64,000 nt of DNA from Parcubacteria group bacterium (lineage in GTDB: Bacteria; Patescibacteriota; Minisyncoccia; Phycocordibacterales; GCA-002724975), in the NCBI GenBank assembly GCA_002724975.1, contig PBQF01000039.1, positions 1,152 to 65,151 on the forward strand, in the 5' to 3' direction. The notes under the pieces are model-generated. The model was not told the DNA's origin and searched no databases. It was given only the letters and a program-made list of their open reading frames with translations. A program made the position numbers and the translations under genes. Shown here piece by piece: positions 10,242 through 10,755 of this stretch; position 1 is the first letter of the stretch; every line of letters begins with the position of its first letter.

Positions 10242-10313
10242 GAACTGAGATTATTAAGTCCTTTCATTAAAATTAAAGAACTGAGATTATTAAGTCCTTT
10301 CATTAAAATTAAA
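10242..10313. repeat. perfect 36-bp x 2 tandem direct repeat (gaactgagattattaagtcctttcattaaaattaaa)
   Basis: Two identical adjacent copies at 10242-10277 and 10278-10313, AT-rich, abutting the terminator of GC-rich cassette 1. Confidence 0.9.
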
Positions 10314-10338
10314 AAAGGGGCTACATCGCTGTAGCCCC
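10311..10338 (-). terminator. intrinsic terminator of cassette 1 (GGGGCTACA-tcgc-TGTAGCCCC + T6 on minus strand)
   Basis: Perfect 9-bp stem, 4-nt loop, followed on the minus strand by TTTTTT. Confidence 0.8.
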
Positions 10339-10406
10339 TCGGGTCGAACGACTGGATTCTTGTTCTCCGTCCGGCAGTTAAGCGGGACGAAATTACTCCA
10401 GATCGT

Positions 10407-10679
10407 CTACCCGTCCATGCCCGCCTGAGCCTCCATCTGCTCCCGGTGGGCATGCTGTTCCCGCTCCACGCGAGCCTTCATCTTGGTGCAGAACTCGCCA
10501 CAGGCGGTTCTCACCATTCCCAGGAGCATCAGCCTGGCTTCCGTTGTGTCAGCCGGACCCATGTCCTTGGTCAGCTCGCCGAGCTCCCTGGACAACCCTC
10601 CCAGCTTTTCGGAGACCGACTTCGTGATCGCCGCCCGGATGAGCCGTTCGTGGATGTGTTGCGGGTGGTGGTCTGCCAT
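10407..10679 (-). CDS. hypothetical small protein (90 aa), GC-rich foreign-composition cassette 1
   Basis: ATG at 10677-10679 is preceded by AGGAGG (10686-10691). GC3-rich codons (MADHHPQHIHERLIRAAITK...). The ORF-track upstream extension is not supported. Confidence 0.55.
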   Translation of the reverse strand: MADHHPQHIHERLIRAAITKSVSEKLGGLSRELGELTKDMGPADTTEARLMLLGMVRTACGEFCTKMKARVEREQHAHREQMEAQAGMDG

Positions 10680-10726
10680 AGTAGAACCTCCTTGAATGTA
10701 GACTAGCTTATTCCAGCCTACGCCCA

Positions 10727-10755
10727 CATTATATATCAAACTGCTGGAAAAGTCA
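10727..10755 (-). promoter_or_regulatory. sigma70-like promoter of cassette 1 (TTGACT-17-TATAAT)
   Basis: Minus-strand -35 at 10750-10755 and -10 at 10727-10732 with a 17-bp spacer, about 48 nt upstream of the ATG. Confidence 0.6.

Follow-up and report, generated by a model that had tools for sequence, protein, structure and literature searches.

A conserved two-helix RNA element behind a small-protein gene and a recurrent 36-bp repeat polymorphism in a strain-variable islet of marine Paceibacteria

Candidate RNA motifs associated with open reading frames (ORFs) have been found in bacteria by comparative genomics, and among structured internal loops the sarcin-ricin/loop-E loop, where AGUA lies opposite GAA, adopts a three-dimensional fold with a bulged G and non-canonical pairing. 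To our knowledge, post-transcriptional control is almost unexplored in Patescibacteria. Here, we describe a locus on contig PBQF01000039.1 of a Parcubacteria group bacterium (GenBank assembly GCA_002724975.1), located in a stretch of 64,000 nucleotides (positions 1,152 to 65,151 of the forward strand) that was analysed as a whole and is referred to as the window. The locus comprises cassette 1, a GC-rich 90-aa ORF with its own expression signals, and directly next to it two tandem copies of a 36-bp unit, which the original prediction had regarded as a possible scar of an insertion event or as an attachment-like sequence. The combined data are likely to reflect three separate things, namely a copy-number polymorphism of the 36-bp unit, a strain-variable islet of 1.7 kb, and an autonomous cassette 1 that carries a 3' RNA element. 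The features of cassette 1 and of the repeat are the following, as read along the minus strand:

10728 to 10756, minus strand: promoter-like TTGACT-17-TATAAT, 11 of 12 positions matched
10693 to 10726, minus strand: 5'-proximal stem-loop of the transcript with the loop AAUAAG (-14.6 kcal/mol, z -4.4)
10687 to 10692, minus strand: Shine-Dalgarno sequence AGGAGG, 7 nt before the ATG
10407 to 10679, minus strand: 90-aa ORF of a two-helix small-protein family
10349 to 10404 (core 10352 to 10401), minus strand: conserved 3' RNA element (covariance model R1, 78 bits, E 4e-20)
10315 to 10340, minus strand: intrinsic terminator hairpin GAGGGGCTACA/TGTAGCCCCTT of 11 pairs, then a T-tract
10278 to 10313, no strand: copy 2 of the 36-bp unit, called by Tandem Repeats Finder (TRF), the first bases of which prolong the terminator T-tract on the minus strand
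10242 to 10277, no strand: copy 1 of the 36-bp unit (GAACTGAGATTATTAAGTCCTTTCATTAAAATTAAA), called by TRF; five of ten population contigs have one unit only

The 3' element of cassette 1 is a conserved two-helix RNA structure. In the window, helix P1 pairs CUGGA with UCCAG (NNGGA/UCCNN in the family form), the invariant internal loop has GUAA on its 5' side and AACAAGAA on its 3' side, and helix P2 (UUUCGUCC/GGACGGAG) carries a C·C mismatch, a GC/GC extension and a hexaloop. Across the family, this inner helix retains a C·C or C·U mismatch, the two-pair extension and a UUNANU loop, and a purine-rich segment (AAC-AAG-AAU) is conserved as a single strand. RNAalifold independently returned exactly the proposed two-helix structure. 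In the alignment 96% of the cells were paired, as compared to 21–54% in slid controls, and compensatory double changes were found at 8 of the 15 pairs, an outcome reached by none of 500 shuffles. The window element itself has a minimum free energy of -20.2 kcal/mol (z -3.3), single sequences fold likewise, and the frequent G·U pairs fit folding of the sense strand only. When the loci are aligned, conservation over the element, which begins shortly ahead of the stop codon and ends about 10 nt short of the terminator, exceeds that of the coding sequence; the element is kept even in L133, the protein of which is only 30% identical. Covariance model R1 gave exactly one strong match at each family locus, in every case between the ORF and the terminator.

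In 8 of 10 element sequences the UAA of the loop is the stop codon, while the stop lies 14 nt upstream in the window and 9 nt upstream in L133. Where the stop codon is located in the internal loop, a terminating ribosome must open P1. The element can fold only on ribosome-free mRNA and may be read out by translation, and it is tentatively attributed to a putative protein-binding or RNA-stability module that acts post-transcriptionally. No Rfam 15 family matches it, the best score (BjrC68, 19.9 bits versus a gathering score of 39) being driven by the terminator; within the window, only rRNA and tRNA families exceed the gathering thresholds. A search of the window, including its 23S rRNA, for the complement of the invariant strand gave no match above chance. 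The 105 matches of the 16-nt element core in viral contigs lack the loop motif, and the better matches of the covariance model there, located within phage coding sequence or at the end of a contig, were discarded as chance hits. Readthrough or frameshifting at GGAG-UAA was likewise rejected, as the sequence lacks three-base periodicity, covaries as RNA and is followed by the terminator. The locus thus links an RNA structure outside Rfam to a small-protein family that is unannotated and widespread in Patescibacteria.

Together with its promoter, 5' stabilizer-like hairpin, Shine-Dalgarno sequence, ORF and terminator, the element appears to complete an autonomous transcription unit. The promoter, AGGAGG, 90-aa ORF and terminator of the original prediction were all located on the minus strand, and the unit ends as a rho-independent terminator should, with a GC-rich hairpin and a U-tract. 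Similar hairpins with a CUGGAAU loop are found at the 5' end in L012, L013 and L128. The 5'-proximal hairpin and the RNase J gene in the window would be consistent with a stabilized mRNA.

The 36-bp duplication, in turn, is a recurrent tandem-repeat polymorphism of one or two units within the strain-variable islet. TRF reports a perfect 36-nt array with 2.0 copies at 10242–10313, and a search allowing three mismatches gave no other copy in the window (0 chance matches expected), in agreement with the earlier description of two identical head-to-tail units seen nowhere else in the window. The 36-mer was not found in any of 185,579 species-representative genomes, and in the metagenomes of the Joint Genome Institute (JGI) it occurs on one contig only, L015, at the same locus. 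Searching further genomes, as suggested earlier, thus gave the unit at this locus only.

The host is a marine Paceibacteria population of the candidate phyla radiation (CPR); NCBI names of identical proteins point to Paceibacteria/Parcubacteria metagenome-assembled genomes, for the host as well as for the relatives. Its window has a GC content of about 38% and includes 23S and 5S rRNA, ftsEX, prfB, RNase J and six tRNAs. Exact look-up of the window FtsE gave ten contigs of 21–67 kb from the same population, all at least 99.8% identical to window positions 9001–14100. Alleles were read from the assembled contigs, with L015 as an additional JGI contig of this population; it corresponds to window positions 10242–12755 at 99.72% identity, begins exactly at the repeat and includes both copies of the 36-mer. 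Two copies are present in L137, L139 and L144 as well as in the window and L015, one copy in L136, L141, L142, L143 and L145, which are otherwise collinear with the window, and no copy in the Tara scaffolds L138 and L140. Typing by single-nucleotide polymorphisms (SNPs) revealed the same cassette haplotype with one or two copies, both for the window versus L143 and for L137 versus L136, L141 and L145. It follows that the number of copies changed on more than one occasion, unless recombination reshuffled it.

On the minus strand, the first ~15 nt of the 36-mer prolong the U-tract of the terminator and can be aligned with the relative L012. The unit is thus cassette tail plus spacer, and target-site duplication could not produce such a unit. 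It would represent an AT-rich spacer that extends from the terminator U-tract to 18 bp short of the edge of the variable block, and the duplication probably arises, and is recurrently gained and lost, via slippage or unequal recombination. No structure is predicted for the 36-mer (folding z > 0), and no partial copy was found on the other side of cassette 1. The case illustrates that a perfect repeat can accompany a gene of odd composition without being an insertion scar, and the duplication itself is ordinary.

The unit that varies among strains is larger than cassette 1, as illustrated by L138 and L140. The block and its surroundings are composed as follows:

11944 to 12019, minus strand: tRNA-Asp(GTC), at the 3' end of which the variable block starts
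11941 to 11948, no strand: proximal copy of an 8-bp direct repeat, TATGCGCG, overlapping the final 5 nt of tRNA-Asp
10224 to 11940, minus strand: strain-variable 1.7-kb block (GNAT, GrpB, cassette 1, 36-mer(s) and 18 nt) as delimited by BLAST breakpoints, missing in L138 and L140
11344 to 11838, minus strand: GNAT acetyltransferase gene inside the block (GC content at third codon positions, GC3, of 0.30)
10772 to 11347, minus strand: GrpB-family gene inside the block (GC3 0.32)
10216 to 10223, no strand: distal copy of the 8-bp direct repeat TATGCGCG (CGCGCATA on the minus strand)
10070 to 10145, minus strand: tRNA-Thr(GGT), 96 nt downstream of the 36-bp repeat on this strand
9989 to 10062, minus strand: tRNA-Thr(CGT)

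At the junction of L138 and L140, which was read in contiguous sequence, the tRNA-Asp 3' end is joined directly to window position 10223 and downwards. The BLAST breakpoints fall at 11941|10223 with an overlap of 8 nt, and the empty allele keeps one 8-mer. As in tRNA-targeted elements, the block abuts a tRNA 3' end, the flanking repeat includes 3' bases of the tRNA, and presence or absence is polymorphic with a precise empty site. A Pfam scan of the block gave only GNAT, GrpB and the 90-aa ORF and no integrase or recombinase; a Phage_integrase gene is found about 10 kb away, outside the window. Beyond the 8-mer, the similarity between block end and tRNA-Asp 3' end does not exceed that of shuffles (0.71 and 0.26), and no tRNA 3'-end remnants were detected in the window at 24 or more of 36 matches. 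The islet was either integrated at the tRNA-Asp end or lost again via the 8-bp repeat by microhomology deletion. Integration is favoured by the block starting precisely where the tRNA ends; the missing recombinase and the lack of significant tRNA similarity past 8 bp count against it. An apparent replacement of a second GC-rich unit, cassette 2, in L138 and L140 was traced to a 100-N scaffold gap. Small strain-variable islets at tRNA genes are hereby recorded in a streamlined marine CPR population.

The tRNA-Thr pair was confirmed to adjoin cassette 1. Placing the cassette "downstream" of it holds for the adjacency and not for the transcriptional sense, as all of these genes are on the minus strand and the cassette is upstream of tRNA-Thr. 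The neighbouring prfB was rightly called N-terminally short, with Pfam PCRF matched only from profile position 78. This RF2 homologue (9109–9978, minus strand) begins only 11 nt after tRNA-Thr(CGT), leaving no space for the usual frameshifted N-terminal part, and its extension by gene callers across the tRNAs, to 334 aa, is an artefact.

The product of cassette 1 is a member of a Patescibacteria-wide family of two-helix proteins with roughly 75–90 aa. A word-indexed search gave six clusters of close relatives (60–99% identity), and a profile search of 1.84 billion representatives gave 92 clusters at E <= 1e-3, nearly all of 70–100 aa. AlphaFold models the 90-aa protein as a confident two-helix hairpin (predicted local distance difference test, pLDDT, 87.6), and pairwise divergence by codon position (0.28/0.20/0.45) bears the signature of coding sequence. 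No family match was found in Pfam, NCBIfam, PHROGs or PADLOC, and no significant one in the PDB (sequence profile E >= 0.5; Foldseek E >= 4.6). Viral contigs, GenBank phages and GTDB species representatives returned no family members, and a literature search gave nothing relevant on the sequence or the phenomenon. Three residues of the window allele, R15, G54 and C64, depart from the family consensus. The CxxxC motif noted earlier is specific to some strains and not conserved, residue 64 being Y in the family consensus and in most other strains. All six SNPs of cassette 1 (10489–10709) are A/G on the sense strand, the coding ones being Q15R, E54G and Y64C.

The composition of cassette 1 deviates strongly from its surroundings. 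The ORF has 63% GC versus 38% for the window, and its GC3 of 0.82 compares to 0.30–0.35 in grpB, GNAT, prfB and ftsE. Describing the insert as foreign in composition is thus correct for the ORF and not for the variable block, whose GNAT and GrpB genes are native in this respect. In eight close relatives the gene forms a 54–60% GC island in roughly 40% GC DNA (GC3 0.74–0.75), and the neighbourhoods differ: ruvC/obg, an aminoacyl-tRNA synthetase, ftsEX-tRNA-Gln, or a transposase/recombinase/reverse-transcriptase region. The last is seen in L135 (1–6875), where family member P0101 is found among a DDE transposase fragment, a large serine recombinase and a reverse-transcriptase gene. Cassette 1 could accordingly represent a recent horizontal gain from a GC-rich donor, its composition being simply foreign. 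Besides GC3, the strain-variable islet beside a tRNA, the varied neighbourhoods, with L135 among mobile-element genes, and a raised SNP density would be in line with such a gain. Still, we consider it unlikely. The family was seen only on Patescibacteria-like contigs and not in the phage and viral collections searched, and promoter, Shine-Dalgarno sequence and terminator are of host type. Moreover, third positions in the GC-rich clade are nearly saturated (~45% divergence) with GC3 remaining high throughout, suggesting that the richness is maintained rather than being a relic of one recent transfer. The distant members L131 (52% identity) and L133 have host-like GC, and the other genes of the islet are native in composition. 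High GC3 may instead reflect selection on the mRNA, and a small gene with GC3 near 0.8 in genomes of 38–46% GC would provide a clean case for selection on synonymous sites or mRNA stability.

Several observations weigh against the combined reading of cassette, islet and repeat given above. The structural evidence is drawn from 10 distinct element sequences that are phylogenetically related, and the empty allele is based on two Tara scaffolds from one pipeline. High GC3 may also be caused by repeated transfer from an unseen GC-rich reservoir. Furthermore, cassette 1 accounts for 6 of the 27 variable sites in 20 kb (P ~4e-5), a SNP density about 10 times that of its surroundings, and its three coding SNPs are all non-synonymous; jointly with cassette 2 the count is 10 of 27 (P ~2e-6). 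This pattern fits relaxed or diversifying selection and is less comfortable with a conserved housekeeping role.

The GC-rich promoter-to-terminator units might alternatively belong to a new kind of miniature gene cassette, which is recombinase-free and moves between tRNA-adjacent sites of Patescibacteria, with the 3' element as a mobilization signal or a new class of regulatory RNA. The main lead is found in L128, where tRNA-Gln is followed by a tiny Cys-rich cassette, a degenerate tRNA-Gln 3' end, the family cassette and a second degenerate copy. These two copies share a perfect core of 27 nt and are 84% identical over 45 nt, and their similarity to the tRNA-Gln end was reached by 0 of 3000 and 3 of 3000 shuffles, respectively. 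Further leads are the tRNA-Asp islet, the ~10-fold SNP excess and a break in synteny between L001 and L002, whose sequences agree at 98.8% identity as far as the cassette terminator and show no relation past it, the break occurring about 40 nt after the element. A mobile cassette of this kind is nonetheless doubtful in our estimation. The tRNA-Gln gene is an integration hotspot, both in the population and in the relative L128. In the window, tRNA-Gln (7373–7444) stands in the order ftsX-tRNA-Gln, then VKOR, whereas L141 and L144 have a 512-aa large serine recombinase with helix-turn-helix and DUF3160 genes at this site (~11660–13400), and L145 yet another insert at the same coordinates. In L128, the above arrangement of two promoter-to-terminator mini-cassettes spans 5520–6400, and its outer borders also carry a 15-nt repeat, TTTGTGATAAAATAA.

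With regard to the repeat, an adaptive duplication is improbable in our view. The 36-mer would act as a promoter or UP-like element for the tRNA-Thr pair, which the terminator of cassette 1 would cut off from upstream transcription, and doubling would be a means to tune tRNA-Thr expression. The AT-rich unit does follow a strong terminator and precede the tRNA-Thr genes by 96 nt, and both copy-number states persist in several samples. Conversely, no sigma-70-like match was found in the unit on the tRNA (minus) strand, the only matches (9 of 12 positions) facing the opposite way, and the tRNA-Thr genes of the empty allele do without any 36-mer. Recurrent gain and loss on identical haplotypes looks like neutral repeat instability.

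That the 3' element acts on DNA rather than as RNA, as an attC-like recombination site of a mobile cassette, is quite improbable. Located at the 3' end of a small ORF, the element does form an imperfect hairpin in which a mismatch is conserved, and R1 gives a weak second match in the untranslated region (UTR) of cassette 2 (12214–12272; 19.3 bits, E ~0.005), i.e. after an unrelated ORF. The end of L001/L002 homology about 40 nt past the element and the tRNA-remnant repeats flanking the L128 cassette could be read in the same direction. However, RYYYAAC/GTTRRRY core sites are not found at the base of the stem, which is NNGGA/UCCNN, and the window copy has GCTTAAC solely within its variable loop. 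Cassette 1 is preceded by a promoter of its own (11 of 12), cassettes are dispersed between tRNA and housekeeping genes rather than arrayed, and the scanned neighbours include no integrase gene. The frequent G·U pairs and the fixed placement between stop and terminator fit RNA. The match in cassette 2 is graded only as possible, because the minimum-energy fold pairs the conserved strand and thereby sequesters it. In summary, the attC analogy fails on defining features.

Very improbable is the scar or attachment site that gave rise to this study, according to which the tandem 36-mers are a target-site duplication or an arm-type site that arose when the GC-rich cassette inserted. The edge of a strain-variable indel is indeed only 18 bp away, so that the earlier placement of the repeat at the edge of an insert was partly right, and in L128 the family cassette lies between direct repeats of 27–45 bp derived from a tRNA 3' end. 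Yet the repeat itself is neither scar nor attachment site. Its copies at 10242–10313 adjoin each other and flank nothing, and the two flanks of cassette 1 have no sequence of 8 nt or more in common. The duplication does not always accompany the insert, as five insert-bearing contigs have a single 36-mer; such strains are as common as those with two, and either number occurs on the same haplotype. An empty site should hold one copy, whereas L138 and L140 lack both the block and any 36-mer; the comparison with insert-less regions that was suggested earlier thus shows that the 36-mer is not ancestral target sequence. In addition, the 36-mer is absent from the species genomes and restricted to this locus in metagenomes, and the block end shows no significant similarity to the tRNA-Asp 3' end beyond the 8-mer. 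The true junction repeat is the 8-bp CGCGCATA, and the variable unit is the 1.7-kb block, including GNAT and GrpB of native composition. Finally, an assembly or scaffolding artefact is hardly credible: short population contigs do end exactly at 10242 (L015), where assemblers evidently struggle, but two copies are found in four other independent assemblies (L137, L139, L144 and L015) from different samples and pipelines and one copy in five, and the perfect 72-bp array is shorter than one read.

Other GC-rich units were noted in the window. Cassette 2 (12146–12720, minus strand) directly follows the 3' end of a tRNA-Met and consists of TTGACA-17-TATAAT, AGGAGG, a 90-aa ORF with a GTG start (12330–12602), a 3' UTR of 185 nt and a terminator. 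Its ORF has strain-level homologues only, and four sites vary in the population, including a 3-nt deletion in L126. Cassette 3 (13620–13990, minus strand), between rmuC and tRNA-Met, holds a GC-richer ORF (13718–13987, 89 aa) without family or R1 match; a 36-nt stretch of its 3' region is 72% identical to the 5' hairpin of cassette 1. The ORFs of cassettes 2 and 3 were tried as members of the cassette 1 family and found to be unrelated by profile comparison. At 34250–34723 (minus strand), a GC-rich, Cys-rich ORF of 157 aa is built from zinc-ribbon-like CxxC…CxxC modules, three of which form a 114-bp tandem repeat (34266–34607, 95% identical); the tiny Cys-rich peptide of cassette A in L128 is similar to it. 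A further island of 45–51% GC in roughly 35% GC DNA (20780–21370) features overlapping ORFs of 72–90 aa on both strands, none of them with a Pfam match.

In comparison with described systems, integron attC cassettes share with cassette 1 the arrangement of a small ORF followed by a conserved imperfect hairpin at the 3' end. Cassette 1 differs from them by bringing its own promoter and terminator, by the lack of an array, of IntI/attI and of R''/R' cores, and by an element that is also conserved in sequence. The 1.7-kb block resembles tRNA-associated integrative islands in its position at the tRNA-Asp 3' end, in a flanking direct repeat that takes in the final bases of the tRNA, and in being present or absent among strains. 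Unlike these, it has no integrase and is far smaller than typical islands, and its repeat is merely 8 bp long, so that microhomology deletion is equally possible. The 36-bp repeat behaves like variable-number tandem repeats (VNTRs) that change by slipped-strand mispairing or unequal recombination, with perfect head-to-tail copies whose number varies recurrently on the same haplotype in otherwise identical strains; unlike in VNTRs, there are only one or two copies, and microhomology at the original duplication borders is not visible. A likeness to the sarcin-ricin/loop-E motif is seen in the invariant loop, where GGAGUAAU faces AAGAAUCC on the second strand, a resemblance in sequence that serves as a lead only. 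In this loop, covariation indicates that the A of AGUA forms a Watson-Crick pair within P1. The element of cassette 1 is also related to structured 3'-UTR elements of bacteria. It is set apart from these by its unusual overlap with the stop codon and by having no Rfam 15 family. It shares with them, with small RNAs derived from 3' UTRs and with candidate ORF-associated RNA motifs a covarying conserved structure directly upstream of an intrinsic terminator that is better conserved than the coding region. The RNA element and the protein family of cassette 1 are thus new entries of known kinds, next to a repeat of an ordinary type.

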